DNA from: a virus
Lineage: Duplodnaviria; Heunggongvirae; Uroviricota; Caudoviricetes
DNA length: 64,000 nucleotides
IMG/VR virus record: IMGVR_UViG_3300008267_000033
Span: 1-64,000 of that record
Strand: one strand, 5' to 3'
The notes under the pieces were generated by a model. That model was not told the origin of the DNA. It did no database searches and saw nothing but the letters and a program-made list of their open reading frames with translations. Both the position numbers and the translations under genes were made by a program. Every line of letters begins with the position of its first letter. The first letter of the stretch is position 1. Below, one piece after another: positions 704 through 56,220 of this stretch.

Positions 704-1485
704 TCGAATCTACAAAAACTCGATATTGCAATGAATTTTGGTACCACAGCAATGATCTAATGATTGGTGCCAGTCTTGCACGGTACGGAGAGTACAGTCA
801 ATGCGAAATTGATTTTCTACTGAGTTTCTTAACCAATGATGCCGTGGTATATGATGTGGGGGCCAACATAGGATACCATACCACAGCATTTGCCACACGG
901 GTCAAACGTGTGTATGCATTTGAACCTCACCCAGGAAATTATGCATTGTTGGAAAAAAACACTGAGGAATTTGACAATGTGTTTTTAGGGCAGTATGCAG
1001 TGAGTGACCGCAGGACAACTTGTTACATTTCAGATTATGATCCTGATCAGATCAGCAATTTTGGTGCTGTCAGTGTTGTTGATGACACCACAGGAATTGC
1101 GGTCCGTGCCATTGATTTAGATACTGCTGGGTTGGACCTACCGGACTTCATCAAGATTGATGCAGAAGGACACGAATTACAAGTGCTACAAGGTTGCAAA
1201 CAAATCGTACAACAACATTGCCCTGTGATCTACTATGAAGCACATGAATCACGGCACCTTAGAGACATATACTTGTTGTTGAGTGAAGATAGATATAGGT
1301 TTTATTGGGCGCAAGTGAACAATTATAATCCTGCAAATTTTGCCAACAACGCAGACAATGTATTTGGAAGTAGTGGATTGATGAGTATTCTAGCCTGGCC
1401 TAGAACGCTGGGAGAATTGCCGATGACTCCTGTGACAGGCATGGATGACACTGCTGGTAGATTCTACGCCAACGGACATCCTTAA
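700..1485 (+). CDS. FkbM-family methyltransferase
   Basis: VYDVGANIGYHT motif (FkbM SAM-binding signature); start overlaps the upstream stop by 4 nt. Confidence 0.5.
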   Translation: MIESTKTRYCNEFWYHSNDLMIGASLARYGEYSQCEIDFLLSFLTNDAVVYDVGANIGYHTTAFATRVKRVYAFEPHPGNYALLEKNTEEFDNVFLGQYAVSDRRTTCYISDYDPDQISNFGAVSVVDDTTGIAVRAIDLDTAGLDLPDFIKIDAEGHELQVLQGCKQIVQQHCPVIYYEAHESRHLRDIYLLLSEDRYRFYWAQVNNYNPANFANNADNVFGSSGLMSILAWPRTLGELPMTPVTGMDDTAGRFYANGHP

Positions 1486-2510
1486 AGATAAGTTTCTAGT
1501 CCGCCACGTCTGCGGATGTCTTGTGTGCAACAACTGATACCGCCATCCCAGAAGTAACTGTGACGCAGTTCACTGATGATAGGGTCTATTCGATGCCGGC
1601 GGCAGTAGTCAAATACTTCTTTGTTGTATGCACTGAATATAACATGCGACTCATCCAGTACCAAACAGTTGACATCAAACACAGTTTCAGCAACAAAGCC
1701 AGTCCACTTGGTCAGATAAGTGTTCACAAAGTCTGAGAACTCTGCGGTAGGAGTTTGCCCTTGCACGTACCAGGCACCCGGTGATTGTTCATACTTGAAC
1801 TTGCCAACTTCCATGGCTGCCCAGATTGAACTATCCCAGATCTTGCAAACATCCCAACCTGGGAAGTCCGCAGCCAAATTCAAGTTTACATCATGCTTGC
1901 TTGACAACAACACACCTGGCTTGAGAATAGCAAACACAGCATCACCGTGCCCATCTGTAATGGCCTCGTGTACTCTATATTCAGCACCCAGCACATTGTC
2001 CACAATCCAACGAGTTTGATCTGGACGCAAGAAGTCTGAGTTATCAAAAAACACATCACGACCCACACGCACAATGCAACTTGCACTGGCGCCATTTAAA
2101 ATACAATCTGAATCCCATGAACTTTTATGCGGATTAACCACTGCATCGCCATATTGTTTGCAAATATTATCTAGCTCTGGCATGGCCAACACACGTAACA
2201 ATTTGTCGCCTAATGTAATCTGCCAATCTCTTGGGGTAAGTGGTGGCAAGGGTGCACCACCACCTTCAGTTTGATGCCAAATAAAACTGTCTTTGTCGGG
2301 CAAGTCTGGACGTTTGACCACAGCACCAAAACGTTCAATGGTCTTGACAAGATTGTCAAGATCTTCGTCAGTCTCTGCCAAGATTTGTTGCAGTTGATTG
2401 CGTACTTGTGCATTGTCTATAAAATCAAAGTAATCAGGTGTGTACGCACACCCCACAATGACTTCTTCAAGTGGTTGCCAGCTGGTATAGGAGTTAACGA
2501 TGTTGTTCAT
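1482..2510 (-). CDS. amidinotransferase-family protein (glycine/inosamine amidinotransferase-like), paralog 1
   Basis: N-terminal WQPLEEVIVG and C-terminal GGISCCTQDIRRRGGLETYL match the amidinotransferase WDPLEEVIVG ... GGFHCxTxDxRRRG signature, including the catalytic Cys. Confidence 0.55.
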   Translation of the reverse strand: MNNIVNSYTSWQPLEEVIVGCAYTPDYFDFIDNAQVRNQLQQILAETDEDLDNLVKTIERFGAVVKRPDLPDKDSFIWHQTEGGGAPLPPLTPRDWQITLGDKLLRVLAMPELDNICKQYGDAVVNPHKSSWDSDCILNGASASCIVRVGRDVFFDNSDFLRPDQTRWIVDNVLGAEYRVHEAITDGHGDAVFAILKPGVLLSSKHDVNLNLAADFPGWDVCKIWDSSIWAAMEVGKFKYEQSPGAWYVQGQTPTAEFSDFVNTYLTKWTGFVAETVFDVNCLVLDESHVIFSAYNKEVFDYCRRHRIDPIISELRHSYFWDGGISCCTQDIRRRGGLETYL

Positions 2511-3684
2511 TTATTTGCTCGATTAAAGTATTTAAACGTCCGGCCTTTGAGGACTGAAATAATTGTTGGTTGTATTCAATGTCAGCTCTGCACTGTTCAA
2601 ACAACTGTGGCAGATGTTGCTTGGCATCGTGTATGGCTTTTGTGAGAGTGATCCAACGCTGAGTGTGATTGTGTTCACAGTCGTAATCATTGTCTAAAAT
2701 GCCATCAAAAACTCGATAGCCAAGATCGCGTAATGCTTGCAAACTGCCTGCACCACCGGCTACAAAAAACATCTGTCCATGCTTGATGGGTTTAAAAGTT
2801 TTTTCAGTGATAAAACATCCATTGGACTGATCCACATCAAATTGGCTTTCCAACACAATATTGCAATAACTATTGACATGGTATTTGGGAATCAGCACAC
2901 TGTGATCGTTGCGTTGGTCAAAGTCCAATTCGTCGCTGATGTATGGTGCGCCGTCAAGAAATTTCTTGCGCTCATATCTCAATCGGGATATCATGTCAAC
3001 TTCAATGGGGCAATCGTCATCTGCGCCTGTGGCAGGTTCACAATAACTCCAGTATGAATTGTCTAACAATCCGCTTTGCCATAGATCAGCTATTGCAGTG
3101 GCCCGCCACCATTTGTGGATTCTACTCAAACAAGTAAAATCATGCTCTCTTGGTTGATTGTGTGCAGGCAATGGCGCCTGGTCAAGATTGCGTTGATAAT
3201 ACCATAATTCAAAGTCATGAAAAGTTACAAATCCAGGTTGTTTGGCAGCGGCTGAATTTGCACTGACAAACACATAGCAATCCATGGGCATGCTGTGTTG
3301 CTGGGCCAATGTGTCCAATCGATTTTTGATACGTGCAGGGTGGTCACCTTCGTGATAGTAAAACAACAATCGCAAATCACCCTGACGCACACGTTGTCGC
3401 ACATGGTCATTCAACAACTCAAAATAATCAATGTCAAAATCAAAAAAGCCAATGCCAATGGGGTAAAAGGTATTGGGAGGTAGCACATCATGTATGGAAA
3501 AAATGTTGATGGGCACTGAATGTTGTTCGCAGTATTCTTGCAGTCTCAATGGAGTGGTGTAAGGCCAGTGCTGTCCAAACTCACGCCAGGCCTGTGTGTA
3601 AGGTCTGGCCTGATGACGTGCCAGTGCAGGATATATTCTACCTTTGACCGTGGCATCTGCCACAAAATTAAGACTTAAATTCAT
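2494..3684 (-). CDS. GT10-like glycosyltransferase, paralog 1 (fucosyltransferase-type C-terminal motif)
   Basis: C-terminal LESQF..CFITEKTFKPIKHGQMFFVAGG...FDGILDNDYD resembles the GT10 FENS..DYITEKxW..AGxVPVVxG motif; five paralogs in the window. Confidence 0.4.
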   Translation of the reverse strand: MNLSLNFVADATVKGRIYPALARHQARPYTQAWREFGQHWPYTTPLRLQEYCEQHSVPINIFSIHDVLPPNTFYPIGIGFFDFDIDYFELLNDHVRQRVRQGDLRLLFYYHEGDHPARIKNRLDTLAQQHSMPMDCYVFVSANSAAAKQPGFVTFHDFELWYYQRNLDQAPLPAHNQPREHDFTCLSRIHKWWRATAIADLWQSGLLDNSYWSYCEPATGADDDCPIEVDMISRLRYERKKFLDGAPYISDELDFDQRNDHSVLIPKYHVNSYCNIVLESQFDVDQSNGCFITEKTFKPIKHGQMFFVAGGAGSLQALRDLGYRVFDGILDNDYDCEHNHTQRWITLTKAIHDAKQHLPQLFEQCRADIEYNQQLFQSSKAGRLNTLIEQINEQHR

Positions 3685-4831
3685 TCAACATATCCTGTAA
3701 TTCCTGCCATAGTATGGCTTCAAAGCCGCCATGATAAAAATGATTCCAATTGTGCTCAATAATTTCATGTGCAGAGTCAAATAGGTCTTGGCGATGTTCT
3801 TCCAACCCATCTAACATTTTTAGCACTTGTGCAATCTTTTCTATGCGCTTGGCATCATCTGGTTCATCATCATAGCTTTCGTCCCACAAGTGATCAAATG
3901 TTCGAAATCCATAACTGCGCAAATACCTCAAACTGCCTTGGGTGCCTACTATGATAAACGGCATGCCCATGGCAATGGGTTTGAAAGTTTTCTCAGTCAA
4001 GTGATGTCTGCGTCCTGTGGCCACAGTCTCAGTAACCAAGTATAACAAACTTTCAGCAGATTCATCAAACAAACTGAGCCAGCACGAATGCATGGGATGA
4101 CCAGTTTCACCTTCAAAGTTCCGGGGTAATGATTGTTGGGCAAACACTGTTTCAATGTCAGGGTACTTGTTTTTAAGAGGTTGTATGGCATCTAGTATAG
4201 CAATGTTTTCCGCAGGACACACAGAGGGACACGACACATGATTTTTAGACATGCCCATTTTAAATATCCAGTACAACATTTCCAATCTGTGCTTGCGTTC
4301 GCCTGCCACAATACGATTAGGTGCCAAGAACGTTCGTGTGATTGTTCGTTGAGCAGGTGGAGTAATCAAAAAAGTTCGATCATATCCACGGAACCAATCC
4401 AATGCTGCCCAGCCATGAAAGAAATAATAATAACTTTTCCAGTTGTATTTGTTGCACACAAACTCAACGGTGTCACTGTCTCGCTCGCTGGTAATAATGC
4501 TGCCAACCTGGTGATCAATTCTTAGCGGCTTGGTGTACCCAGCATCAAGGGCTATTTTGTTTAATTTGATTCGATTGGTACACAATTCATGAATATCTTT
4601 GTTTTTATCCACAACAGATTCAAAAGTGGGCAAGTGTATGTTCAAATGAATAGGCTCTTGATCCCATAATAGTGTATAATTGTGTTCGTGAGTAATATCA
4701 CTGCCATAATTAACTAGACTGTCAGGGTCAGTTCTGCCAAACGGCTCGCACCACCATAATCTTACTCTAGGATGATTTTTTTTAAGCCAAGGCCAAAATG
4801 TGTTGTTGTAAATTTCATCTATTCTAATCAT
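3668..4831 (-). CDS. GT10-like glycosyltransferase, paralog 2
   Basis: LTEKTFKPIAMGMPFIIVGTQGSLRYLRSYGFRTFDHLWDESYD motif shared with 2494..3684. Confidence 0.4.
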   Translation of the reverse strand: MIRIDEIYNNTFWPWLKKNHPRVRLWWCEPFGRTDPDSLVNYGSDITHEHNYTLLWDQEPIHLNIHLPTFESVVDKNKDIHELCTNRIKLNKIALDAGYTKPLRIDHQVGSIITSERDSDTVEFVCNKYNWKSYYYFFHGWAALDWFRGYDRTFLITPPAQRTITRTFLAPNRIVAGERKHRLEMLYWIFKMGMSKNHVSCPSVCPAENIAILDAIQPLKNKYPDIETVFAQQSLPRNFEGETGHPMHSCWLSLFDESAESLLYLVTETVATGRRHHLTEKTFKPIAMGMPFIIVGTQGSLRYLRSYGFRTFDHLWDESYDDEPDDAKRIEKIAQVLKMLDGLEEHRQDLFDSAHEIIEHNWNHFYHGGFEAILWQELQDMLNEFKS

Positions 4832-7457
4832 GTTTGACGTATTTTATTCAGGAAAGAAGCCAGGCCGTTTTGCGCATGAGCGTGAGGCTGATAGTATCGA
4901 GCATGCACAGAAGTTGAGTCGCACAAGGTATTTTTGGTGGATACACTACTTAGCGGACCTCAACACATGGGATTGGCTTTTTGAACCTGTTCCATGGCAA
5001 ACCGACCAACGGCATGCATGGCCCAATCAACATCAACCTGATTCAGGCGTGTACCTTGTGCCACGTGCAGGATACACAGACACAAACTATCACAGTGAGC
5101 TGACTATTCGTCACCAGGCTGATCAGTCGTGCTGGCATGTGCCCGATTACATAGATGCTGCCAGCATTGATACACAGTGGAGTCCTGACCCCATGGATCC
5201 GCCTTACGTGTACGAATTTCCAGTGGAATGGGGATGGGACAACATAGGGGGTCCGGAGTATCGAGTACCTGGCGCTGTTGAACGCAAGTTTGTGATGAAT
5301 TTTGTGGCACGTACTGTGCCCGATCACTCAGCATGGCATCAGCACTGCTCAGCAGACTTGCCACCGGAACTTGCCCGTTGGAGACCCAACCCTGCGGACC
5401 CACCCTATGACTATGTGTTCGGGAATCAGTGGCATTCAGCTGAAGTCATGCCCACAGTGGAATATCGTGTGCCAGGTGCTGTCAGCAAGAAGTACATGTC
5501 AGAACTCAAAGCCCAATTGCCTGCCCAACACACTGATCACTGGCACACTTTGATCGATTGTGACTGGGACTATAGTTGGATACCTGATCCAGGAGATCCT
5601 CCTTATGTGTATGTGTTTGGCAATCAGTGGTGGTCAGCAGAGAAATGGCCCACAGTGGAATATCATGTGCCGGGTGCTACAGAACGCAAGTACATGGATT
5701 ACCCACGTGCTTCATTGCGGACTGTGAACACAGGCTGGCGTGACCGGAGTGATCATGGTTATACATTTGACTGGACCTGGCAGCCTGACCCTGGGGATCA
5801 GCCTTACATCTATGTGTTTGGCAATCAATGGCATTCAGCACAAGTCATGCCCACCGTGGAATGGCGACATCCTGCAGCCACAAATGACTCCCCTGTAAAG
5901 TACATGGACTGGCCACGTGCTGTGTTATTGCCTGATCCAACACTATGGACCATACCCGACGGTGTGGATCATGCACAGATTGATTTTTCTTGGCGGCCTG
6001 ACCCTGGTGAACCACCTTACATGTATCAGTTTGCCACACAGCATCAAAAAACAGGTGGGCCTGTGTACACAGTACCGGGCGCCACAGAAACCAAGTATCT
6101 TGAAAACATACAGATCAAGATCGAAGCAGAAACTGTGCCCATTGTGGAAATAGATCACTTGGACGGTGCAGCAGGGCAGATTGCCAACACCATCAAACGC
6201 ATAAGATACTTTGACAACTATCGCGACACGCTAATTCGCTTGGCCAAGAGTCTGGTGGACCAACATGAATTTGTTTGGGTGTGCTCGAGCATTTGTGACT
6301 ACACTGATTTTGATTTCTCTTGGCATCCTGAACAGTGGCAGCAGACCATGCTGCATGTGTTTGCCAGTGATACCCAAAAGTTTGGCGACACGTTTTACAT
6401 GCATGTGCCTACATTTGCTGCTAGAGCTGAAAAGAAAGCATTGTTGGAATGGTACAGTGTGAACTTTGTCAAAATCACTGTGTCACGACGACCCATGCCG
6501 GTTATTGTACACAACAGTGACAGTCAAGTAGATGCAGTAAAAACAACGAACTGGGCAGGACCACTGGCCACATTTACCAACCATGACTATGTGCAGGGTA
6601 ATCTGGTGACTGTGCCACTATGGCGGCAAGACACCAAGACCATTGTGCCTGTTGGGAGTGGCGCAGGCACAGTAGTTGTTCCCAAGGTCGCTGTTCCCTA
6701 CATAAAGACACAGTTGTATGACTATGCTCACATAGACCGCACACAACGTATTTTGAAAGACCCGCCGTTGGACATTGTGTTCATCAGCAATGGTGAAATA
6801 AATGCTGAAATTTACTTTGAACATTTGGAATACACAGCCCACGACGCAAATCATAAGAATCTCATGCATCATGTGTCAGGCGTGAATGGTCGTGTGGCAG
6901 CATATCAAGCGGCTGCTAGACAGAGCACTACGCCTTGGTTTTTTGCTGTGTTTGCCAAACTAGAAGTCACTAGAGATTTTGACTGGTCCTGGCAACCTGA
7001 CCGTATGCAACAGCCCAAGCACTATATCTTTCATGCACACAATCCTGTTAATGGATTAGTGTACGGTCACCAGGCCATGATTGCTTACAACAAACGATTG
7101 GTGTTGGAGAACTCAGGTGCGGGACTGGACTTTACACTAGACCAAGCACATGAAGTTGTGCCTATTTGCTGTGGCACAGCCATGTATCATGAGTCAGACT
7201 GGATGTGCTGGCGCACTGCTTTCCGTGAAGCGATAAAACTAAAAGCCAGTTTACCTGATGTTGAAAGCGAGCACAGACTAAATCGATGGCTCACGGTTGA
7301 CTCAACAGAAGGTGGGTGGAGTCGCAAAGGTGCTGAAGATGGTGTGGAGTACTATGACTCAGTTGGTGGTGACTTTGCGGCGCTTAAGAAAAGTTATGAG
7401 TGGAACTGGTTGGCCACGTATGCGTTTGTCAAACGCAGTCTAACAACTGATCAATAA
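4830..7457 (+). CDS. large tandem-repeat protein (875 aa) with at least 7 copies of a ~65-aa unit, W-x-PDP-x-DPPY-x-Y-x-FGNQW-x-SAE-x-MPTVEY-x-VPGA
   Basis: Repeats read directly from the translation (DPPYVYEF, DPPYDYVFGNQWHSAEVMPTVEYRVPGA, DPPYVYVFGNQWWSAEKWPTVEYHVPGA, DQPYIYVFGNQWHSAQVMPTVEWRHPAA, EPPYMYQFATQ...); no known family recognised. Confidence 0.55.
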   Translation: MFDVFYSGKKPGRFAHEREADSIEHAQKLSRTRYFWWIHYLADLNTWDWLFEPVPWQTDQRHAWPNQHQPDSGVYLVPRAGYTDTNYHSELTIRHQADQSCWHVPDYIDAASIDTQWSPDPMDPPYVYEFPVEWGWDNIGGPEYRVPGAVERKFVMNFVARTVPDHSAWHQHCSADLPPELARWRPNPADPPYDYVFGNQWHSAEVMPTVEYRVPGAVSKKYMSELKAQLPAQHTDHWHTLIDCDWDYSWIPDPGDPPYVYVFGNQWWSAEKWPTVEYHVPGATERKYMDYPRASLRTVNTGWRDRSDHGYTFDWTWQPDPGDQPYIYVFGNQWHSAQVMPTVEWRHPAATNDSPVKYMDWPRAVLLPDPTLWTIPDGVDHAQIDFSWRPDPGEPPYMYQFATQHQKTGGPVYTVPGATETKYLENIQIKIEAETVPIVEIDHLDGAAGQIANTIKRIRYFDNYRDTLIRLAKSLVDQHEFVWVCSSICDYTDFDFSWHPEQWQQTMLHVFASDTQKFGDTFYMHVPTFAARAEKKALLEWYSVNFVKITVSRRPMPVIVHNSDSQVDAVKTTNWAGPLATFTNHDYVQGNLVTVPLWRQDTKTIVPVGSGAGTVVVPKVAVPYIKTQLYDYAHIDRTQRILKDPPLDIVFISNGEINAEIYFEHLEYTAHDANHKNLMHHVSGVNGRVAAYQAAARQSTTPWFFAVFAKLEVTRDFDWSWQPDRMQQPKHYIFHAHNPVNGLVYGHQAMIAYNKRLVLENSGAGLDFTLDQAHEVVPICCGTAMYHESDWMCWRTAFREAIKLKASLPDVESEHRLNRWLTVDSTEGGWSRKGAEDGVEYYDSVGGDFAALKKSYEWNWLATYAFVKRSLTTDQ

Positions 7458-8511
7458 CATACTCAATTTCCAAGTCTGTTAGTTCAGGATAGATAGGTAG
7501 ACTCAAACATCTACGTGCTAGGCTGCTGCCAGCACTCAGCAAGTCTGGGCTCTGGTAATGTTGATATGCTGGTAACTCATGCATGGGTGTTGCGTAGTGT
7601 ACCTTGGTTTCAACACCACGCAAGGCAAGATTACGTTGCAAGATATCACGATTGTCCACATGAATCACAAATTTGTGAAAACAGTGCTCATCAAAATTGC
7701 TGCTGTCAATCAAACAAGTGATATTAGGATTTTGTTTCAACATCTCTATCCAGTGCTGAGCAATGGTGCGTCTACGTTGTTGCCACTGGTCAATGTAGCG
7801 AGTTTTTACCAACATCTGCGCACAGTCCGTTTCGCTCATTCTACTGTTGGTGCCAACTTCTGCATGTTTGCTGTGTTTGCCATTGCTGATCCAATCCTGG
7901 GCAAAATCTCTCAAGCCAGCATTGGCAGTGATTACCGCCCCACCATTGCTATAGTTGGCTAGATTCTTTGTGGGATCAAAACTAATAGCACAATCGCCCA
8001 GCCGATTATTGTCATTGCTGAGCCAATGCTGTGCGCCATCTTCAATTATGAGATGAGTAAGCGGCCAAATACTGTTTCTCAATGCGTGAAGGGACTGCCC
8101 ATACAAACCTACACCGCATATGGCTTGAACATCTGTACCGTGTAACAGTTTGTCCATGTCCATCACACCATACCGATCAGTGTCCACAATGTGCAAGTTC
8201 CAGCCTGCTCGCACAAATGCATTCAGTGTAGCAGGATATGTTATTGTGGGCACAGCCACAGTGGGCGGTATAAAACCTGATCGTGATTGATACCATTCAG
8301 CAATGATTTCTAATGCTTGTGTACCCGAGTGACAGGTTATGGCATAAGGTTGGTGATTGCGTCGAGCCAGCCAATCTTCAAACTCATAAGTGTAGTTGCC
8401 GCTCATGAGAGATCCTGAACGCAACACTGTATCTGTTACATCTAAGATCTCGGTGCGAAGATTGTTATACTGTTTTCGGATTCCAGTAAACGGAATTGTC
8501 AAGCCACTCAT
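7429..8511 (-). CDS. DegT/DnrJ/EryC1/StrS-family PLP-dependent sugar aminotransferase
   Basis: N-terminal IPFTGIRKQY...AITCHSGTQALEI and ISFDPTKNLANYSNGGAVITAN, the DegT SFxPxKxL..GxGGxxxTN Lys region. Confidence 0.55.
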   Translation of the reverse strand: MSGLTIPFTGIRKQYNNLRTEILDVTDTVLRSGSLMSGNYTYEFEDWLARRNHQPYAITCHSGTQALEIIAEWYQSRSGFIPPTVAVPTITYPATLNAFVRAGWNLHIVDTDRYGVMDMDKLLHGTDVQAICGVGLYGQSLHALRNSIWPLTHLIIEDGAQHWLSNDNNRLGDCAISFDPTKNLANYSNGGAVITANAGLRDFAQDWISNGKHSKHAEVGTNSRMSETDCAQMLVKTRYIDQWQQRRRTIAQHWIEMLKQNPNITCLIDSSNFDEHCFHKFVIHVDNRDILQRNLALRGVETKVHYATPMHELPAYQHYQSPDLLSAGSSLARRCLSLPIYPELTDLEIEYVIDQLLDCV

Positions 8512-12780: not shown

Positions 12781-12942
12781 TATTGTTGTTGCACACAGAA
12801 CAAGTGAGCATTTAGTCCACGGTCTTTTAATATCTTAGAAAGGTCTCTACATTCTTGATATGTTTTGACTTCGGCCAATTGAGAGAACTTTATCTCAAAC
12901 GGTGCCACATCCATTGTAAGTGCAATAATCAGTGCCCACATA

Positions 12943-16389: not shown

Positions 16390-16412
16390 GTGATTCCTTG
16401 TTTGTTTCATGT

Positions 16413-45066: not shown

Positions 45067-45279
45067 CTATGTACTTTTAAAACTACCCCCAGTGATCTGC
45101 ACTTCCACTACTTCTGCACCACGTGCTTGTTGTTCACGCAATTGTTCCAATATTAGCAACAATTTGGTTATGTCTGCGTGTAAGTCTTTGGCATCTCGCA
45201 TGGGCATCATGAAATCTTTTTGCCCACGTGCTTCGTGTGCTTTGACGTTGTCTACAAAACGATTTATGTGTATGCTCAT
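45067..45279 (-). CDS. hypothetical small protein
   Basis: ORF track. Confidence 0.3.
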   Translation of the reverse strand: MSIHINRFVDNVKAHEARGQKDFMMPMRDAKDLHADITKLLLILEQLREQQARGAEVVEVQITGGSFKST

Positions 45280-45698
45280 TTTTTCAAGAAGGGAACCAAA
45301 TTAGGTGCAGTCCAGCCCTGAGGCTTGAGCACTTTGCCATCCTCACGCTTGCGCACCTTGCCTGTATCTCGATCAATCTTGGCAAGGTTAGTGGCCATAA
45401 CTTCTTTCCATGCACTTTCTGCATCTGCACCCATCGAATGGATAGCACCTATTGTTACAACCAGAATGTCTATAAGCGCATCCAATTGTTCTACGCGGTC
45501 ATCCGATAATGTAGCTTCCAATAATTCTTGATGTTCTTCGTTAATTAAATTAATATACATTGCATACTGTAGTTCATTAGATGAGTCTACAGTTTGATCG
45601 CAAGCTCGCATGAACTTTTCCTGATCACGAAAGGGATTTGTCACGTGCTGCCTCCTGGGTATGAAATGGACCTTGATATTGATAGCGTTCCAACACAA
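45276..45698 (-). CDS. mazG: MazG-like nucleotide pyrophosphohydrolase
   Basis: LINEEHQELLEA and DALIDILVV helices (EExxE/D motifs of the all-alpha NTP-PPase fold). Confidence 0.55.
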   Translation of the reverse strand: MCWNAINIKVHFIPRRQHVTNPFRDQEKFMRACDQTVDSSNELQYAMYINLINEEHQELLEATLSDDRVEQLDALIDILVVTIGAIHSMGADAESAWKEVMATNLAKIDRDTGKVRKREDGKVLKPQGWTAPNLVPFLKK

Positions 45699-48154: not shown

Positions 48155-48857
48155 GTGTGGTTACCAAGTTGTGTTGTTTGATGTATTGTAACACATACTT
48201 GGCCCAAAAGCAATGTCCTTTGGCATCAAAGTGATAGGAATTTGGTGTAACCCACTCAAATCCGTTGTTTACAAGTACAGAATTGTAACTTAGATCTCGA
48301 CTGTACGGACCAAGATAACTTTTACCAAAATCTTTTTTATCTGAGATATCACTAAATGTACTCCATCCGTTGTAAAACAAATGTGTTACTTTTTTGTCTG
48401 ATAGTTCAACGTGCAGATTCCAGATTTTTTTATACCATTCTTGAGTCTTTGCCCAGTAATCGTGATTGGCCACATATTGCTTGTAGCGTAATTGTAAATC
48501 TTTTGGAATCCAGTCAGTTCCGCTGGCGTTAACCTGGTAATAGGTACCATTGTGCAACCACTCTTCTCGTTCCCAAGTAGTCCACTGTATCACAACAAAA
48601 ACGTCTGATAAGTCTGTTTGATTATCTAGCCATTGCTGTGTGGTCCTAAGTATCCGGTCATTGCTGGATGCAGATTCTGCATCACACACCAAGTTGGCAT
48701 CTATTTGTTCTGCAAGTCGGGTACACCAACTGGCTGCTAGGTTTACAGGATGTGGACGTCGATCAATACCTGCACCACCATTGTCCACAGCAAATGCATC
48801 AGGAACAACTGCTTCTGCAGCCGCGGTGTGGCTGCAGCCATTTGCATACAGTATCAT
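48135..48857 (-). CDS. SGNH/GDSL-like hydrolase paralog (GCSH variant of block I)
   Basis: N-terminal LYANGCSHT; C-terminal ..KGHC.. (block V-like); one of six paralogs. Confidence 0.35.
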   Translation of the reverse strand: MILYANGCSHTAAAEAVVPDAFAVDNGGAGIDRRPHPVNLAASWCTRLAEQIDANLVCDAESASSNDRILRTTQQWLDNQTDLSDVFVVIQWTTWEREEWLHNGTYYQVNASGTDWIPKDLQLRYKQYVANHDYWAKTQEWYKKIWNLHVELSDKKVTHLFYNGWSTFSDISDKKDFGKSYLGPYSRDLSYNSVLVNNGFEWVTPNSYHFDAKGHCFWAKYVLQYIKQHNLVTTHALSTD

Positions 48858-49345
48858 CGCGGGCTGGGACCACCTGTGTCGTCAGCACCCACTGGTTCCC
48901 ATGCTTCAAGTTTCTTTTTCAAGAGTTCGGCATTGACCACACGCTGTCGTAATTCACTGCTACTAAACGAATGATCGCGTCCATTAAAGTGTAATTCAAT
49001 ATCACGTTTGTGACAAATCTCGCGTCCAGTGAATTCACGACCTTCGTATTCCACACCTAGTATGCGCACGTCAATGGGCAGGATCAATAACAGGTCTTCT
49101 AGATCTTTTTCTGTGTTATAAACCCAGACTTCATCCACATACTTGCAGCCTATCAATTGCAGTTGTCGCTCCACAATGCTTTGCACTGGGCGATTCTTGT
49201 TGGGTCGGTCCAAGGTGGGATCATTTTGCAATGCGCAAATCAAGTAATCGCATTCTTCTTTTGCTTCACGCAACATGGCTATGTGGCCAGCATGTAACAA
49301 ATCAAATGTGCTGGCAGTAAAGCCAACTCGTCGTCCATCCATCAT
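48854..49345 (-). CDS. cytidylyltransferase-like nucleotidyltransferase
   Basis: GFTASTFDLLHAGHIAML = HxGH nucleotidyltransferase motif (glycerol-3-P cytidylyltransferase / RfaE domain II type). Confidence 0.55.
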   Translation of the reverse strand: MMDGRRVGFTASTFDLLHAGHIAMLREAKEECDYLICALQNDPTLDRPNKNRPVQSIVERQLQLIGCKYVDEVWVYNTEKDLEDLLLILPIDVRILGVEYEGREFTGREICHKRDIELHFNGRDHSFSSSELRQRVVNAELLKKKLEAWEPVGADDTGGPSPR

Positions 49346-49356
49346 AATCTATTTCC

Positions 49357-49779
49357 TTAACTGATCTCTGTGCGCCCATCGCCGATGTCTCTGGTTCGAA
49401 CATATTGTGCACCAGAGTTACGAATGGCTTGTTCTTGTTCCCATGTTTCCATCACAACGTGTCTGCACACATTTTGGAACCACCGATCCACCAGATCCGA
49501 GTCTGCGTCTGTGGGTTTCATCATGTAACCAGCCTTGACCAATCTAGCAATGAATATCTCATTCCAGTCCAGTTCAAATGCGCCTTGGTGCAAGTTGTTG
49601 GGATCAATGTCCATGGTTACAATGGCCACATAAGGCTCACCTTTTTCAGTGGCAAGTTCTTTGGCGGTTTTTTCTGGTGCTCGGGGCACACGCAGAACCT
49701 TTTCTTTTTCCTCTTTTGCAGGAGGTTTTGTTTTAAATCTATCAAAGAATCTCATTATTTGCCCCATCCATTGCCCCAA
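49357..49779 (-). CDS. hypothetical protein
   Basis: ORF track. Confidence 0.3.
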   Translation of the reverse strand: MGQWMGQIMRFFDRFKTKPPAKEEKEKVLRVPRAPEKTAKELATEKGEPYVAIVTMDIDPNNLHQGAFELDWNEIFIARLVKAGYMMKPTDADSDLVDRWFQNVCRHVVMETWEQEQAIRNSGAQYVRTRDIGDGRTEIS

Positions 49780-50600
49780 AGATCAACGTGCAATCTGGGA
49801 CTGTACCAGTAGCCACGCTTGAGTGCTTCGTCAGCAACATTGATCCTGTTGCCATCGTATACCGACACCACACCGCCCACTGGCATCACAAACACAGGAC
49901 CACCAAACTCACGCAGGCGATATTCATCCACAGCACGATCCAGTTCGTTAAAGTCCGCAACCTTTTCCACCACAAACTTGAGATATGTCACACCGTATGT
50001 TTCGTAGTCCCATACCACGTCAGGCTTGATAGCATCCTCCCATGACTCTCCTGATACTGATAGTTTGGGACTTACACTGAAGGTGATCTCACCAAACCAA
50101 TTGCGCAAATAGTCCTTGAACTCTCGCGTCAAGTCTTGAGTACCATTGGTTTCAAATGTGATGTGTCGCAGGCCACGTTCGTGCAACACATCCAACAACT
50201 CAGGATAGGCACGTTGCCAACCCAGCAGTGGCTCGCCACCTGTGATCACAAGATGCACAGGATTGCCATTGGGTTGCAGCCAGTTACCACGGGGCAACAA
50301 TGCTGTCATCTTGTCAACCAGTTGTTCCACTGTATATGTGGGACTCAAGTGCTTGAAGTCTGGATGCCATGACGCATAACTGTCACAGCCTGTGTTCACT
50401 AGTGGCAGTTCTTCAAATGTCTTGTACAACTCCACAGTCTTGGCCACTTCGTCTGCTTCCTTACTCTTTTCTCCTGGCTTGCAACCAAATCCTGAACAGG
50501 TAAAGTTGCAACCAAACATACGCAAGAACACGCTGGGCACACCAACATAGCGTCCTTCACCTTGTGCTGAATAAAATAATTCTGATACTTTTAATTTCAT
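49755..50600 (-). CDS. queE: QueE-like 7-carboxy-7-deazaguanine synthase (radical SAM; atypical CX3CX4C cluster motif)
   Basis: MKLKVSELFYSAQGEGRYVGVPSVFLRMFGCNFTCSGFGC matches the QueE N-terminus ..EIFxSIQGEG..G.P..F.R..GC. Confidence 0.5.
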   Translation of the reverse strand: MKLKVSELFYSAQGEGRYVGVPSVFLRMFGCNFTCSGFGCKPGEKSKEADEVAKTVELYKTFEELPLVNTGCDSYASWHPDFKHLSPTYTVEQLVDKMTALLPRGNWLQPNGNPVHLVITGGEPLLGWQRAYPELLDVLHERGLRHITFETNGTQDLTREFKDYLRNWFGEITFSVSPKLSVSGESWEDAIKPDVVWDYETYGVTYLKFVVEKVADFNELDRAVDEYRLREFGGPVFVMPVGGVVSVYDGNRINVADEALKRGYWYSPRLHVDLWGNGWGK

Positions 50601-51307
50601 AATCTTGTTACCTTTGCCATGCCCGACTTGCGGGGATCTTTATTTAGATTGATACTTTCTTCATGCATTTTAACACGGGTTTCTGTTTTTGTCACCCAAC
50701 CTGGTAATACTGCATCCAAATAGGCCAAATGCTCCTCAGGACTAGGATGCGGATCGCCATTTCGATTGGGCCATCCAGTTTTGGCAAACACAGTTTTGTC
50801 ATAGCCCGGCAAGATAGTGTCCAATACATCACTGTACAATCTCATGACATCTCTGTGCAAACTAATATCATCATTGGGCCAAGGACGAGCCATGAGTTCT
50901 ACCATGCTTATGAATCGCCAGGTCAACCCTGTACGAGTTTCTAACAACGTTTTGACTGCCTTGATATATGCAAGGTCTCGTATCAAATACCCTCGCTCGT
51001 CTATGTGTGTTTTGAGATATTCTTTGTTGAATACGTTGGTTGCAAAATGCGCATTGCCTGGAGTGTGCCACCGTCCGTCAACATACCGATCTTCGCGATC
51101 TAAACTTGTCCAACAAACTATCACAGTATCGGCAACACCGAACTGATGACGTTGATCCGCTTCCATTACTGAGTTAAAAATGTAATGATTGCCGCCACCG
51201 GCCTGTCCCCAATTTTCAAAGTGATCAAATTCTGGTGCCAAGCAATCGGCCCAGGTGCTCCAACGATAGTTGGTAAAACTACACCCAAATGTAAACAGCC
51301 TTGACAT
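50597..51307 (-). CDS. SGNH/GDSL-like hydrolase paralog (GCSF variant)
   Basis: LFTFGCSFT, NWGQAGGGN (block II-like), HPSPEEH (block V-like). Confidence 0.35.
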   Translation of the reverse strand: MSRLFTFGCSFTNYRWSTWADCLAPEFDHFENWGQAGGGNHYIFNSVMEADQRHQFGVADTVIVCWTSLDREDRYVDGRWHTPGNAHFATNVFNKEYLKTHIDERGYLIRDLAYIKAVKTLLETRTGLTWRFISMVELMARPWPNDDISLHRDVMRLYSDVLDTILPGYDKTVFAKTGWPNRNGDPHPSPEEHLAYLDAVLPGWVTKTETRVKMHEESINLNKDPRKSGMAKVTRL

Positions 51308-53313
51308 CAGGTCACTAGTTGTTTTTTCTTAATTGAAAAAGCACCTTGTGCTTTGGCAGCACCTGCACCTCGACGTGTGCCCTTGACATTTTCAACACCA
51401 ATGCGATCCACTGTGGCCTTGCCAAAGTTTCTACGTCGGGCAAAATAAAACAGTTCCAAGAAACGGTTCAAACTCATGGTCTTGTCTTCGGGAAAATCCA
51501 GCCTGTATGTTGTGGCAGTTTTTTCCAAGGGCTGATTGAAACTGAGATAATCCCAGATGTTGTAATCTACATCAAGATTCATGGGATATTGATTTCTATC
51601 ATTGTACTTGATGTAGTAATTTCTTTGCAGTTTCATCAAACTGGCCAACAAATCTTCGGGCAAGTTATAACGTTGTAAAAACTTTTCCAGCACGTCATAC
51701 AGTTCATCCACACGGTCTTCCTGGTGCATGTTCATACTTGTTCTGTGAATGATGTTCCAGCCATGTATTTCTACACCAATCTTGGGATGGTTGATTTTGC
51801 CAGTCATCATCCAGTTGGCAAAGTATTGGCGTGTTTCGGCTTCTTCTTTCTTCACCCATTCATTGGTCATAAAATACTCAAACAAATCTTCATAGTAATC
51901 ATTGTAACTGATGCCCATGTACTTGTTGATGAAACGTGCAACTAGTGTAGCAAAGCCATTGATGTGGAATGTGGTTTGAAACCAGGAGAAAATCTGTGCA
52001 TCCAACATAATGGGTGTGGGCATGTCCTTGGTGCCTGTTATGACATCAATACTTTCTTCAATGTGTTCCACACTGTAACTGCCGGCAAAGTAATCTGTCA
52101 CAGGCTGACTGGTGATCTTGAACAGCTTCTTTTGCAACAGGTTCATCTCAGCATTTTCCAACAACTGTGCCTGGAACACAGTGATGCCGGTGTGCTGATT
52201 CAAGTCATACAGGGCATAGAAGTTCTTTTTCCATGTTTCCAATGTCTCACCAGGCAAGCCCAAGATCAGTTCTGTGTAAGCAGGAATGTTGCGTTGATCA
52301 CACAATTCAAACACTTCGTTTAGCTTGTTCATTTCCATGTTCTTGCGACGAATGTTTTCCAGCACGTCATGGTCCAGACTTTGCACACTCAGTGTGAGGC
52401 CTTGATTGAAGCCACGTGCATCCAGCAGTTTCTTCACAATGTCTATGACTTCTTTCTTTTGATTCTTGGCCCAGGCCACACTGAATGTTCTGGGTGAGCC
52501 ATATTTTTCTTGCATTTCAATAATCTTGTCTGCAATCATGCCATCACGTTCGGGGAACATGCCAAAGTTAGCATCAGTGATTGAGATCCAGTCAAAGTTT
52601 CGCTTGGCCATCCATTCCAGTTCTTCAAACACACGTTCAAGTTCAAACTTCTTGACCTTGTTGTAGGTCAGACTGCCCCAGTCACAAAATGTACAAGCAT
52701 AAGGGCAACCACGATTGGTTTCCAATGTGCCTTGCCATGTGACTTCGGGATGCTGAGCTATCATTTGGTCAAAGATACCTGACAAATAAGGACTGGCTAC
52801 TTCTTCCAAACTTTCAATGCGTTCAGCATCTTGTGTTTTTACTGCTTCGCCGTCTCTGTTGATCAATAGACCTGGCACTGTTTCCCAGTCTTGAGTTTCA
52901 AAATGTTCCAACACACGTTTGAAAGTTATCTCACCTTCATAACAAATCACAAGATCTATAAACGGTTCTTTGACAAACAATTCGGGATCAGTTATGGCCA
53001 CTTCTGGTCCACCAAATATGGTCAACACTGAGGGATTGATTTCTTTGATACGTCGAGCCAGGGCGTAGTTGTAACGATGATTCCACACATACGTACTGAA
53101 GGTTACAATTTCGTTCTTGGCCAAGCGTTGTGCCAATGGCTCCACAGCATCTCTACGCCAAATCCAATCTGTAACTTCAAATTGTTCACGTATGCAAGGA
53201 TCTGCCAGGCTGTAACTCCATACCACACCTGCTGAATATGGCAGGTAATATGCGTTGAATTCTTTTGGCCCTTGTTGAAAGTTGGGCTGAACAAAGGCTA
53301 GTTTATATGTCAT
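51307..53313 (-). CDS. B12-binding-domain radical SAM (class B) protein
   Basis: TNRGCPYACTFC (CxxxCxxC) after an N-terminal B12-binding-like Rossmann region; 668 aa. Confidence 0.6.
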   Translation of the reverse strand: MTYKLAFVQPNFQQGPKEFNAYYLPYSAGVVWSYSLADPCIREQFEVTDWIWRRDAVEPLAQRLAKNEIVTFSTYVWNHRYNYALARRIKEINPSVLTIFGGPEVAITDPELFVKEPFIDLVICYEGEITFKRVLEHFETQDWETVPGLLINRDGEAVKTQDAERIESLEEVASPYLSGIFDQMIAQHPEVTWQGTLETNRGCPYACTFCDWGSLTYNKVKKFELERVFEELEWMAKRNFDWISITDANFGMFPERDGMIADKIIEMQEKYGSPRTFSVAWAKNQKKEVIDIVKKLLDARGFNQGLTLSVQSLDHDVLENIRRKNMEMNKLNEVFELCDQRNIPAYTELILGLPGETLETWKKNFYALYDLNQHTGITVFQAQLLENAEMNLLQKKLFKITSQPVTDYFAGSYSVEHIEESIDVITGTKDMPTPIMLDAQIFSWFQTTFHINGFATLVARFINKYMGISYNDYYEDLFEYFMTNEWVKKEEAETRQYFANWMMTGKINHPKIGVEIHGWNIIHRTSMNMHQEDRVDELYDVLEKFLQRYNLPEDLLASLMKLQRNYYIKYNDRNQYPMNLDVDYNIWDYLSFNQPLEKTATTYRLDFPEDKTMSLNRFLELFYFARRRNFGKATVDRIGVENVKGTRRGAGAAKAQGAFSIKKKQLVT

Positions 53314-53325: not shown

Positions 53326-54159
53326 TCATTTGGCAAAGTGCCGGTGTGGATTGTCAAATTGCACCATTTGCTTGTTGACATCATTCTGGGCTAATTTTTC
53401 CCAAGGATCTTGTGTGCCTTTGAATATGTTTGTAAAGAATTCAGTACTAATTCCTTGGTTGTGCATGTGCGTGGCCAACTTGACACAGTCCTGATGTCGT
53501 AGTTCAATCTGAGTCTTGCTGTGGAAATCTGCTTCGTCAAATGGACGTCCTTCTAGTGATGCACGTTCTTTGAATGTGGCATCGTTGTTGTTGCCCGTGA
53601 TGTCAGCACGGTCATGCAACACCCAAACAGGTATGCGTTCCCAAATGTCCAACATGTAGGCCTGTTGACTGAGCCAGCCATCTTGCACACTGTGCGGACT
53701 GATATAGCCCAACAACTCATACCACTTGCGTGGCAGTATGGGAAAGATGCTGTAGGGATGATCCAAGTGAGTGTGGAATGCCAGCAGTTTGAATTCCCCT
53801 TCACGGTTCATAATCTCTGTGTCCCAACTTTTGGTCTCCATCACAGCATCATCGTTCCAGATCATCAGCCAACTAGCATCTGTATGTTCGGCCAGTTTGT
53901 TGTTGTACACATTGAGTCTATGGTAGCCCTGGCGTTCAAACTGCATGGCAGTATAACTGAGTTCTTGCTGGTCCAGCCATGGCTGTAGTTCAGTACGGAA
54001 GTATTCAGTGCCTGCTGCATCGTCATTGTCAAACGCAAACATCAATTGTAGTCGGTCAGGACGATCAGCAAGACTGATCAGGCTGCGAACACTGCGACCT
54101 AAACTTTCAGTGCGGCCTCGTGTGGCCAACAGCATTGCAATATCGTACTCAGGTGTCAT
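53326..54159 (-). CDS. hypothetical protein
   Basis: ORF track; no motif recognised. Confidence 0.3.
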   Translation of the reverse strand: MTPEYDIAMLLATRGRTESLGRSVRSLISLADRPDRLQLMFAFDNDDAAGTEYFRTELQPWLDQQELSYTAMQFERQGYHRLNVYNNKLAEHTDASWLMIWNDDAVMETKSWDTEIMNREGEFKLLAFHTHLDHPYSIFPILPRKWYELLGYISPHSVQDGWLSQQAYMLDIWERIPVWVLHDRADITGNNNDATFKERASLEGRPFDEADFHSKTQIELRHQDCVKLATHMHNQGISTEFFTNIFKGTQDPWEKLAQNDVNKQMVQFDNPHRHFAK

Positions 54160-54689
54160 GCAAACAAATCCTCATTCCATTCTCTATGGCCTTCTCTAAA
54201 AGCCATATTTGATTGTGTTTCTCTCACTTCTACTCGGTAGCACCACAAGCGTTGTGCCTCACCAGGCCCCCACATGTCGGGAATGTACACACCGTTCACG
54301 TACCGGTACAACTGATCAGCAAGACCTTCGCAGCCTAGTTTGGGTAATATAGTTAGCTTGGCAATGTTTCTGCGTTGCATTTCCCGGTAGAACTCCAATT
54401 CAGGATCGTCTTCTGCCACCAACAAGGTGTGATCAAATTGACTTTCCAACACTGCCTTGAGCTCTTTGAGTCCACCATAGTCAGCGGCCCAGTTGCGTGT
54501 GTCCAACTGATCTGTTCCAAAGTAGAACTTCATGGAGAAACTGTAACCATGTATCAAATTGCAATGGCTGTCTGCCCGCCACTGACGATATGCACATGGA
54601 AATGCATCGTGGTATTCTTTGGTACTGGTATATTTGTATTGTCTTGCGGACATCCAACGGTGTCCCACTTCATTTTGATCTTGTGTCAT
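54156..54689 (-). CDS. queD: 6-carboxytetrahydropterin synthase QueD / PTPS-like
   Basis: SHCNLIHGYSF = Cx3HGH(Y) PTPS/QueD motif; own promoter (TTTACA-17-TATAAT) and GGAGAA SD. Confidence 0.55.
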   Translation of the reverse strand: MTQDQNEVGHRWMSARQYKYTSTKEYHDAFPCAYRQWRADSHCNLIHGYSFSMKFYFGTDQLDTRNWAADYGGLKELKAVLESQFDHTLLVAEDDPELEFYREMQRRNIAKLTILPKLGCEGLADQLYRYVNGVYIPDMWGPGEAQRLWCYRVEVRETQSNMAFREGHREWNEDLFA

Positions 54690-54770: not shown

Positions 54771-55220
54771 TTATGCTGGCAGTTGATATCCTGTGGCTTT
54801 GTAGTTGGCCTGTCCTGCAATAACTCCGCGCACACCACCCACAGGGTCAGCGCAGTCGCCGTTGCGTCTGGGAATCAAATGCACATGTGGATACATCACA
54901 GTTTGGCCAGCGGCTTGCCCCATGTTGATGCCTATGTTGAATGCATCACATTCTCCATCTCGGACCATTCTACGACCATGCCGCATGGCTGATTCAAAGC
55001 AGTCTGTTATCACGTCATCTGTATTGTATTGCGGCACAAACAACAAGTGTCCCGACGCCACAGGATATCGATCTTGGAACACAGAGACATGATAGTCGCT
55101 ATATTCTCCAACCTTGAGGTCCCAAGGTGCAACTCCTGCGACCTGTGCTTGTTCTAATGTTTCATACTTCATTGATAATCTTTCTCTTTTCACCACGACG
55201 TCGAATATCCAGTGTAACAC
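54771..55220 (-). CDS. HIT-family (histidine triad) protein
   Basis: HVHLIP HxHxHxx triad near the C-terminus; real start may be the internal MKYETLEQ. Confidence 0.5.
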   Translation of the reverse strand: MLHWIFDVVVKRERLSMKYETLEQAQVAGVAPWDLKVGEYSDYHVSVFQDRYPVASGHLLFVPQYNTDDVITDCFESAMRHGRRMVRDGECDAFNIGINMGQAAGQTVMYPHVHLIPRRNGDCADPVGGVRGVIAGQANYKATGYQLPA

Positions 55221-56220
55221 AATGCGGACCTGCTGCCCAAAAAGTTTTATGTCTCAATGATGCTTCATGACACGTAATACCCAAGGATGCCATGTGCTCA
55301 AACAGCACAGAATGATGATTATTAAAAATCACATTGTGTGGGTCAACCACCAAGACATTGGTACTGAATGAGACTATTTGCTCATAGCCTTTTGATTCAT
55401 CTAATAGATGCTCCAAGTTTTCAATTTTTTTTTGTTTTTTTTCTGGTGGGAAATACAATTTGATTTCGTGTATGGTTTTGTTTTGCAGTGCTCTGGGCAC
55501 AAATGAACGATCCACACAAAATACAGTGTCATCGTCGGTCATGAAAAAACCATGATCAATATGCCCCCAATTTTGTAGTGCATCACTGTCTGTAGACACA
55601 ATGGTATTGTTAGGAAGATTTCGTTGCATCCATGCTAGGCCTAGTTGACTGCCCGGACCTTGAGTGTTGGTAATCAAATGCTCACCACATTTGAACATGG
55701 TGGCGGTGTGCCAAAGTAGATGTCTGGCATATAATTTGTGATAAACTATACGACCTAAATCTTTGTAGTTATCCATCCATTTTTTTGAGTCAGTCATGGG
55801 CCATAGATTGGGCATGGGTTGACTGATCCAATTGGACCCGTTTTCAAACAGCGTTCTAAAAATATCGTAATAGCTTCTGCCATCAAAAAATCTGTCAGTC
55901 ATGCTGGTATATGTTTGATACACTGTGTCGCCATACACCAAGTACTGATCCCTAGGCACAATCGGGGCCATGGGAATATCAACTGAGAATGAAGATAAAT
56001 TCACTGGCTGTTGATACTGATACACCCGGGGACGATGCACTACCACACCTAACTCTTGCAATAGTGCGGCTAGATTGTCAAGATCTTGTTTGGTTTCTTC
56101 CAACACATGGTTGAAAGCTGACTGAAGTTCTACTGGTATGGCCCAATCAAGATCGCCCGGTGCATAGCAGTCGCCCACTATGACTTCTTCCAGTGGATCC
56201 CAATCAGTCCATACTGCCAT
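55162..56220 (-). CDS. amidinotransferase-family protein, paralog 2
   Basis: WDPLEEVIVG N-terminus and AAGPHCVTLDIRRRG C-terminus (catalytic Cys). Confidence 0.55.
   Translation of the reverse strand: MAVWTDWDPLEEVIVGDCYAPGDLDWAIPVELQSAFNHVLEETKQDLDNLAALLQELGVVVHRPRVYQYQQPVNLSSFSVDIPMAPIVPRDQYLVYGDTVYQTYTSMTDRFFDGRSYYDIFRTLFENGSNWISQPMPNLWPMTDSKKWMDNYKDLGRIVYHKLYARHLLWHTATMFKCGEHLITNTQGPGSQLGLAWMQRNLPNNTIVSTDSDALQNWGHIDHGFFMTDDDTVFCVDRSFVPRALQNKTIHEIKLYFPPEKKQKKIENLEHLLDESKGYEQIVSFSTNVLVVDPHNVIFNNHHSVLFEHMASLGITCHEASLRHKTFWAAGPHCVTLDIRRRGEKRKIINEV

Follow-up and report, generated by a model that had tools for sequence, protein, structure and literature searches.

A large freshwater virus of the class Caudoviricetes, represented by a 64,000-nucleotide stretch of DNA (positions 1 to 64,000 of IMG/VR record IMGVR_UViG_3300008267_000033, hereafter the window), carries two open reading frames (ORFs), ORF1 and ORF2, whose products are supported by sequence and predicted fold as members of the amidinotransferase family of L-arginine:glycine amidinotransferase (AGAT), StrB1, HsvA, and SxtG, with no competing superfamily. 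Our explanation, to which a probability of roughly 0.45 is given as a whole, is that both would be cysteine-dependent amidino transferases serving as tailoring steps of phage glycan or small-molecule pathways; the donor, the class of acceptor, and transfer rather than hydrolysis are what we infer. The kind of enzyme is itself already known. What appears to be new here is the altered catalytic triad, the viral branch, the pairing with a TokK-like methylase, and the opposite conservation of the two copies; no description of an altered triad, a virus-restricted branch, such a pairing, or such a conservation pattern was found in the literature searched.

The preliminary description of this DNA, drawn from the letters alone, had named the two ORFs amidinotransferase paralogs for an N-terminal W(D/Q)PLEEVIVG motif and a C-terminal catalytic Cys with (D/T)(I/L)DIRRRG. 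Both ORFs were borne out at the positions and on the strand given in Table 1, with WQPLEEVIVG at residues 11–20 of ORF1 (start ...SWQPLEEVIVG) and WDPLEEVIVG at residues 7–16 of ORF2 (start ...DWDPLEEVIVG). The C-terminal motif is present in both as well (...GGISCCTQDIRRRG in ORF1, whose protein ends ...DGGISCCTQDIRRRGGLETYL; ...AGPHCVTLDIRRRG in ORF2, whose protein ends ...AAGPHCVTLDIRRRGEKRKIINEV), with the trivial difference that ORF1 has Gln where Ile or Leu had been given. The two proteins are alike at their ends only (33% identity over 100 aa, E 1e-16; 38% over 66 aa, E 3e-11), and their overall identity in the alignment is 23–24%.

In phmmer searches against all PDB chains, only amidinotransferases (human AGAT, StrB1, HsvA, and SxtG) were matched, with E-values of 1e-12 for ORF1 and 7.5e-21 for ORF2, and family profiles built from 27 and 36 homologues matched the PDB amidinotransferases at 2.2e-18 and 6.7e-40, respectively. 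AlphaFold2 models reached mean predicted local distance difference test values of 80.0 (ORF1) and 85.6 (ORF2), and Foldseek searches of PDB with these models retrieved the same four enzymes (E 6.5e-19 and template modelling (TM) scores of 0.64–0.67 for ORF1; E 1.1e-22 and TM 0.70–0.76 for ORF2). Pfam PF02274 matches ORF2 only and lies below its gathering threshold (15.5 versus 22.8 bits), the NCBIfam search gave no family match for either ORF, and the sole PHROG, phrog_25854, is annotated as "unknown function"; many homologues are annotated by JGI pipelines as "glycine amidinotransferase". The proposed family membership was thus upheld by the sequence, profile, and fold matches and by the retained Cys, His, and two Asp residues; no other superfamily emerged from the profile searches, and the condition that the preliminary description had set for refuting it, absence of the Cys/His/Asp triad, applies in part, the Asp being replaced.

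For the comparison of active sites, the two families were aligned with human AGAT, 80 homologues from bacteria, and four further phage homologues; the AGAT sequence was checked at residues 170, 254, 303, 305, 322, 355, and 407 and against PDB alignment fragments. The equivalents of AGAT Cys407, His303, Asp305, and Asp170 (Cys327, His188, Asp190, and Asp95 in ORF1; Cys334, His220, Asp222, and Asp91 in ORF2) are invariant in every aligned sequence, including all 48 members of the ORF1 and ORF2 families. Asp254, named as the third triad residue of AGAT (PMC3684758), is Asp in 79 of the 80 bacterial homologues. At this position the ORF2 family has His in 36 of 36 members (His171 in ORF2, motif LWHTATMFKCG) and the ORF1 family has Ser in 12 of 12 (Ser142 in ORF1, motif NGASASCIVRVG); Asn139, three residues upstream of Ser142, could substitute under another reading of the loop. 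An exhaustive search of 1.84 billion representatives returned 639 relatives at E ≤ 1e-3 and 14 at E ≤ 1e-30. Among the 131 full-length best matches, the Cys, the His, and the two Asp are kept in 128–129, and the 254 column holds Asp in 49, His in 16, Asn in 16, Ser in 12, Glu in 8, and other residues in 30, so there is a sizeable radiation with another hydrogen-bonding residue at this position. Because the 254 residue varies (His, Asn, Ser, Glu) while the Cys, His, and Asp residues stay fixed, the site may be read as a softened or modified triad rather than that of a dead enzyme.

A switch to hydrolysis (as a deiminase or dihydrolase) or to another guanidino reaction, or a non-catalytic role acquired through loss of the triad Asp, is considered unlikely. 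It would agree with the replacement of Asp254 in both families and with the residue before the nucleophilic Cys (AGAT His406), which is His in 80 of 80 bacterial homologues and Ser only in the ORF1 family (Ser326 in ORF1); the pentein fold, moreover, accommodates both transferases and hydrolases. However, the hydrolytic penteins (DDAH, arginine deiminase, agmatine deiminase, and NnhA) reached only about 1e-9 in the Foldseek searches of both models, a gap of about 13 (ORF2) and about 10 (ORF1) orders of magnitude in E-value in favour of the transferases, and a non-catalytic role is opposed by the strict conservation of the Cys, the His, and both Asp residues and by ORF1 being the most conserved gene of its island. 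A dead pseudo-enzyme as the principal interpretation was rejected on the same strict conservation of the catalytic residues.

Under the amidino-transfer explanation, the active-site Cys (Cys327 or Cys334) would attack the guanidino carbon of the donor, most likely L-arginine, which would be held by the two conserved Asp residues, while the conserved His would serve as acid/base. An S-amidino-cysteine intermediate would form, from which the amidino group would pass to a primary amine to give a guanidine, and the triad Asp would be replaced by another hydrogen-bonding residue, His in ORF2 and Ser or Asn in ORF1. Each enzyme may carry out a tailoring reaction within its own auxiliary biosynthetic island of the jumbo phage genome. 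ORF1 would guanidinylate an amino sugar or a glycan-borne amine, and ORF2, whose substrate would be an amine-bearing small molecule or sugar, would work with a TokK-like B12 radical S-adenosylmethionine (radical-SAM) C-methylase, a class-III aminotransferase supplying the amine in other lineages. The FolE, QueD-like, and QueE-like genes near ORF2 would be lineage-specific neighbours rather than partners.

A neighbour-joining tree from BLOSUM distances over 351 columns, which is rough and in which long-branch attraction is possible, grouped the ORF1 family with ORF266 of Synechococcus phage S-SCSM2R and a protein of the marine virus AG-345-D19, and the ORF2 family with one protein from a metagenome-assembled genome (MAG; locus L175). 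The two groups form one clade of 19, apart from the other 79 bacterial proteins, AGAT, gp086 of Campylobacter phage CP220, and S-SCSM2R ORF309. On this rough tree, the ORF1 and ORF2 families would make up a single, almost purely viral, metagenomic branch of amidinotransferases, and the term paralogs is justified if taken to mean two ancient members of that branch. No ORF2-type gene was found by family-specific patterns in 185,579 species-representative genomes, in which a general pattern recovered at least 546 ordinary bacterial amidinotransferases of ≤30% identity. The nearest cellular protein to ORF2, 30% identical, is the L175 protein of a Pseudobdellovibrionaceae MAG (contig JAYVPG010000050.1, 7986–9056). 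It is the sole cellular-genome homologue with His at the AGAT-254 position, and its gene neighbours are four radical-SAM genes and one that is Asp/Arg-hydroxylase-like. Amidinotransferases had been called rare in phages, which holds for deposited genomes (homologues in 7 of 50,697 records, and three BFVD structures) but not for metagenomes, where clustering at 90% identity left 591 ORF1 and 2128 ORF2 clusters; homologues occur in 107 (ORF1) and 185 (ORF2) IMG/VR loci, and members of the branch are plentiful in viromes of freshwater and marine origin.

Table 1. Genes of the two amidinotransferase islands and the tRNA region, by position in the window
Feature	Position	Strand	Remark
NodU/CmcH-type carbamoyltransferase, C-terminal part	92..703	plus	Pfam scan
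FkbM-family methyltransferase	700..1485	plus	Pfam scan; convergent with ORF1
ORF1, amidinotransferase-like protein	1482..2510	minus	342 aa
u396	2494..3684	minus	396 aa
u387	3668..4831	minus	387 aa; first gene of the u387-u396-ORF1 operon
u875	4830..7457	plus	875 aa
DegT/DnrJ/EryC1/StrS-type sugar aminotransferase	7429..8511	minus	PF01041, E 1e-49
NAD-dependent sugar epimerase/dehydratase	8465..9436	minus	PF01370, E 1e-41
30 tRNA genes and tmRNA	26758-37080	all minus	tmRNA tag ANDEQFALAA
Six SGNH/DUF6071-like genes	48135-48857, 50597-51307, 57273-57965, 58749-59426, 59423-60163, 61746-62396
RfaE-domain-II/TagD-like nucleotidyltransferase	48854..49345	minus
QueE-like radical-SAM protein	49755..50600	minus	under equivalog cut-offs
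Cobalamin-dependent radical-SAM enzyme, TokK/CysS-like	51307..53313	minus	668 aa
Glycosyltransferase-like protein	53326..54159	minus	277 aa; phrog_14945, E 9e-12
PTPS/QueD-like protein	54156..54689	minus	under NCBIfam equivalog cut-off
HIT-family protein	54771..55172	minus	start overlaps ORF2 stop
ORF2, amidinotransferase-like protein	55162..56220	minus	352 aa
Bax inhibitor-1 family membrane protein	56223..56921	minus	directly upstream of ORF2
GTP cyclohydrolase I (FolE)	57962..58705	minus	upstream of ORF2
u333	60153..61154	minus	paralog of u396 and u387
Short DegT-like protein	61151..61741	minus	196 aa; like-sized protein in the S-SCSM2R amidinotransferase block

ORF1 is placed as the last gene of the u387-u396-ORF1 operon since the stop of u396 overlaps its start, and ThyX is also encoded around this operon. 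In 80 related loci, synteny with ORF1 is kept by the carbamoyltransferase (77), u396 (78), u387 (77), u875 (67), the DegT-type aminotransferase (57), and the epimerase (58), and in relatives at least five radical-SAM/SPASM genes come after the genes of the island. The carbamoyltransferase ORF is called from the first in-frame ATG that the window contains; since its length is 496 aa in relatives, the gene probably starts beyond the window edge. ORF1 is the best-conserved gene of its island, with a median identity of 85% against 59–77% for its neighbours, including 77% for ThyX (loci within L014–L173). The proteins u396, u387, and u333, the last from the ORF2 island, are paralogs sharing an ITEKTFK motif, which we take to resemble a fucosyltransferase (GT10) motif; Pfam and PDB gave no support for this likeness. 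None of the three has a sequence match in Pfam, NCBIfam, PHROG, or PDB, and searches with u396, u387, u875, u333, and a 142-aa protein of distant ORF2 lineages found no PDB or Pfam match even with E up to 10.

An amino sugar is a plausible acceptor for ORF1, as it fits the neighbourhood of epimerase/dehydratase, DegT-type aminotransferase, carbamoyltransferase, and methyltransferase. The best Foldseek match of ORF1 is StrB1, the scyllo-inosamine-4-phosphate amidinotransferase of Streptomyces griseus (PDB 1bwd; E 6.5e-19), and the succession of a StrS/DegT-type aminotransferase and an amidinotransferase resembles that of aminoglycoside pathways. However, the identity is about 20%, and the phage proteins lack the triad Asp. 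Of the genes expected beside a StrB1-type enzyme of aminocyclitol synthesis, a DegT/StrS-type aminotransferase is present, but no cyclitol synthase or other cyclitol-forming enzyme, inositol dehydrogenase, or kinase was found by Pfam scans that covered most window ORFs of at least 100 aa. AGAT itself (GATM, PDB 1jdw) shares with the phage families the equivalents of Cys407, His303, Asp170, and Asp305 but differs at Asp254, Met302, and Arg322, which are not conserved there, Met302 being replaced by Gly in both families and the carboxylate-binding Arg322 having no clear equivalent. The ORF1 family, in addition, is without part of the AGAT module after the PRD motif and has an insertion of its own at residues 225–262. 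A creatine pathway (GATM plus GAMT) was rejected, as the scanned window has no GAMT-like gene adjacent to ORF1 or ORF2 and the residues specific for glycine are not retained.

The neighbourhoods of ORF2 were compared in 80 IMG/VR loci with homologues 41–87% identical, which fall into 33 lineage groups at 80%. The cobalamin-dependent radical-SAM enzyme beside ORF2 matches the C-methyltransferases TokK (3.7e-79) and CysS (2.5e-48). Its homologues are ORF2 neighbours in 16 of the 33 groups, including the window's own lineage, and it is the only neighbour common to that lineage and the distant ones. Other recurrent neighbours are a class-III aminotransferase (15 groups), the 142-aa protein, located upstream in distant lineages (20 groups), and a radical-SAM enzyme with an HMPTM zinc ribbon (10 groups); in lineages other than the window's, cupins of the Asp/Arg-hydroxylase-like kind and a Trp-halogenase-like protein are likewise recurrent. 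Of these distant-context genes, those for the class-III aminotransferase, the 142-aa protein, the HMPTM-type radical-SAM enzyme, and the halogenase are absent from the window. The radical-SAM theme recurs independently in the modules of Campylobacter phages CP220 and CPt10, in the S-SCSM2R amidinotransferase block, and around the L175 gene. Of the six SGNH-like genes of the island, three have DUF6071 matches, one has a weak GDSL match, and two were recognized by a GDSW/GCSF-type N-terminal motif only.

ORF2 is the least-conserved gene of its block in the window's lineage, with a median identity of 62% against 75–97% for its neighbours, and by these comparisons is probably fast-evolving or being exchanged. 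The two amidinotransferase genes therefore show opposite patterns of conservation and selection in their islands. Elsewhere in the ORF2 island, the QueD-like gene about 1.2 kb downstream of the ORF2 homologue in L015–L017 is an allele only 39% identical, with flanking genes more than 90% identical, which suggests a gene-sized exchange within the island. The Bax inhibitor-1 gene upstream of ORF2 occurs in only five of 20 close relatives. In locus L009, where the surroundings are quite different (DNA ligase, ribonucleotide reductase, ClpX, and HSP70 genes), a Bax inhibitor-1 gene (12894–13568) is also present, about 1.8 kb away from an ORF2 homologue of 54% identity.

The best solved match of the ORF2 family is HsvA, the polyamine amidinotransferase of Erwinia amylovora (PDB 5wpi), at 24% identity and a TM score of 0.76. 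The two have in common their fold, the Cys, His, and paired Asp residues, an N-terminal WDPLEEVIVG, and a C-terminal xLDxxRxG motif. HsvA differs in its canonical Asp (FDAA, against WHTA in ORF2 and S-A-S in ORF1) and in coming from a plant pathogen rather than a phage. An HsvA-like function of ORF2, and possibly of ORF1, as a polyamine or diamine amidinotransferase, with guanidino-polyamines that might, for example, neutralize packaged DNA or alter host physiology, is regarded as rather unlikely. It would accord with the rank of HsvA in the profile (6.7e-40) and Foldseek (1.1e-22) searches, with the class-III aminotransferase, a family including diamine-forming enzymes, beside ORF2 homologues in 15 of the 33 groups, and with an S-adenosylmethionine (AdoMet) decarboxylase in one distant ORF2 context and SpeD about 5 kb from S-SCSM2R ORF309. 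Nevertheless, the window has no polyamine gene in the vicinity of ORF1 or ORF2, HsvA is only slightly preferred to StrB1 and AGAT, and the context of ORF1 is of the sugar type.

Previous studies have encountered related genes in other phages. Campylobacter phages CP220 and CPt10 carry an interchangeable module of five radical-SAM genes and a putative glycine amidinotransferase, to which no function was assigned (Timms et al. 2010, PMC2853527). As in the window, the amidinotransferase stands among radical-SAM and glycosyltransferase-like genes, and the interchangeability of the module parallels the rapid divergence of ORF2; CP220 gp086, however, has a canonical Asp (VDAA), falls outside the branch of ORF1 and ORF2, and is 24.5% identical to ORF2. 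In Synechococcus phage S-SCSM2R, reported in 2025, two amidinotransferases, ORF266 and ORF309, were annotated, of which ORF266 was detected in the virion proteome, a finding that may reflect carry-over of abundant proteins according to the authors (PMC12801897). ORF266 groups with ORF1 at 28% identity and likewise has no Asp at the 254 position, whereas ORF309 is a canonical Asp-bearing protein located among glycosyltransferases, a 195-aa DegT-like gene, and a radical-SAM gene. S-SCSM2R is a T4-like cyanophage and not a jumbo phage of the PA5oct/XaC1 type, and the functions there are assigned by annotation only.

That the enzymes modify amines of proteins or peptides, namely the side chains of Lys or Orn, for example on virion proteins or a peptide resembling ribosomally synthesized and post-translationally modified peptides, is judged quite unlikely. 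The recurrent co-location with many radical-SAM/SPASM enzymes and Asp/Arg-hydroxylase-like cupins would be consistent with it, but no precursor peptide was identified, and the virion detection in S-SCSM2R may be carry-over. In addition, we know of no characterized enzyme of the amidinotransferase family that acts on proteins, which also counts against such a role.

The preliminary description had speculated that the enzymes could act on a deazapurine intermediate made by co-resident preQ0 pathway genes. Of that pathway, FolE, a QueD-like PTPS protein, and a QueE-like radical-SAM protein are present, but the Pfam scans of most window ORFs of at least 100 aa detected no QueC, QueF, or TGT/DpdA. 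With QueC and QueF not found, the genes seen would end at 7-carboxy-7-deazaguanine and would yield no amine-bearing preQ1, so that no new amine would be offered for amidination. ORF2 does sit between FolE and the QueD-like and QueE-like genes, in an order kept in about 20 related loci. However, the Que-like genes, together with the HIT and glycosyltransferase genes, accompany only ORF2 homologues at least 56% identical (about 20 of the 80 loci, 7 of the 33 groups), the more distant homologues having no Que genes nearby, and no conserved linkage of ORF2 to 7-deazaguanine pathway genes across lineages was seen. All four queuosine-family tRNAs, Asn (GTT), Asp (GTC), His (GTG), and Tyr (GTA), are encoded in the window, which gives the queuosine-precursor genes an independent rationale. 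CP220, considered as a second link between amidinotransferases and deazaguanine, was rejected, as the gene after its amidinotransferase encodes a generic radical-SAM protein and not QueE. In the phage 7-deazaguanine papers, the term "amidinotransferase" is used only for ArcS, an unrelated enzyme. The amidination by ORF2 of a 7-deazapurine intermediate from the neighbouring FolE, QueD, and QueE genes is considered highly improbable, and this part of the preliminary description was not sustained.

Several observations weigh against the explanation of the two proteins as tailoring amidino transferases. Asp254, which all characterized enzymes and 79 of 80 bacterial homologues retain, is missing in both families, and catalysis could therefore be altered or lost; without a clear equivalent of Arg322, arginine as the donor is not assured. 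All ORF1 synteny loci belong to one lineage (ORF1 81–98% identical), so their synteny does not prove functional coupling. The suggestion that u396 and u387 may be glycosyltransferases comes from their motif, and Pfam and PDB sequence searches with them gave no match. The distant neighbours of ORF2 (hydroxylases, halogenase, and AdoMet decarboxylase) are more suggestive of amino-acid or polyamine chemistry than of sugar chemistry.

If active, these enzymes would mean that large phages make their own guanidino-bearing metabolites or glycans through an almost virus-only branch that lacks the textbook triad Asp. The abundance of the branch in viromes and the stronger conservation of ORF1 than of ThyX point to a selected function that is missed by the present annotation as "glycine amidinotransferase" or "hypothetical". 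The pairing with radical-SAM genes has been known in Campylobacter phages since 2010 and was never explained, and the present comparison gives a gene set to co-express. A more specific proposal, held with little confidence, is that both are guanidinylating steps toward an aminoglycoside-like or guanidino-glycoside product, or toward a guanidinylated glycan on the virion or the DNA. It is supported by the StrS/DegT-type aminotransferase, dehydratase/epimerase, carbamoyltransferase, TokK-like C-methylase, radical-SAM, glycosyltransferase-like, and nucleotidyltransferase genes and the two StrB-like amidinotransferases; the gene set of both islands presumably mirrors that of aminoglycoside clusters. 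Such a product, if made, could serve host take-over or the chemical exclusion of competing phages.

The window is attributed to a jumbo phage on the basis of related contigs of 225–364 kb (among them IMGVR_UViG_3300023174_000045 and 3300031787_007614) and of its 30 tRNA genes and tmRNA. A nucleotide search with both window ends against the 50,697 phage records found no match, and the phage appears to be without a close cultured relative. The best protein relatives of its flap endonuclease, 45–46% identical, are from the jumbo phages Xanthomonas phage XaC1 and Pseudomonas phage PA5oct, and identical or near-identical proteins were found in freshwater metagenomes. As in the window, the two amidinotransferase types are separated by about 56 kb on one 225-kb IMG/VR contig (L022, L155).

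The window also contains a radical-SAM protein at 17007–18146, whose paralogs cluster near ORF1 in relatives, and a second B12-binding radical-SAM protein of 684 aa (37104–39158). A plus-strand operon at 23792–26770 encodes a class-IV aminotransferase, an alpha/beta hydrolase, and a 411-aa protein that bears the PP-loop motif VLFSGGWDS and was without a family match. A MoxR-type AAA ATPase and a DUF2201 metallopeptidase/VWA partner are encoded at 15085–16410 and 18836–19927. Further auxiliary genes encode an SPFH/Band-7 protein (12943–13737), a rubrerythrin (23220–23657), a fatty-acid desaturase (26851–27552), and a MazG-like pyrophosphohydrolase (45276–45611).

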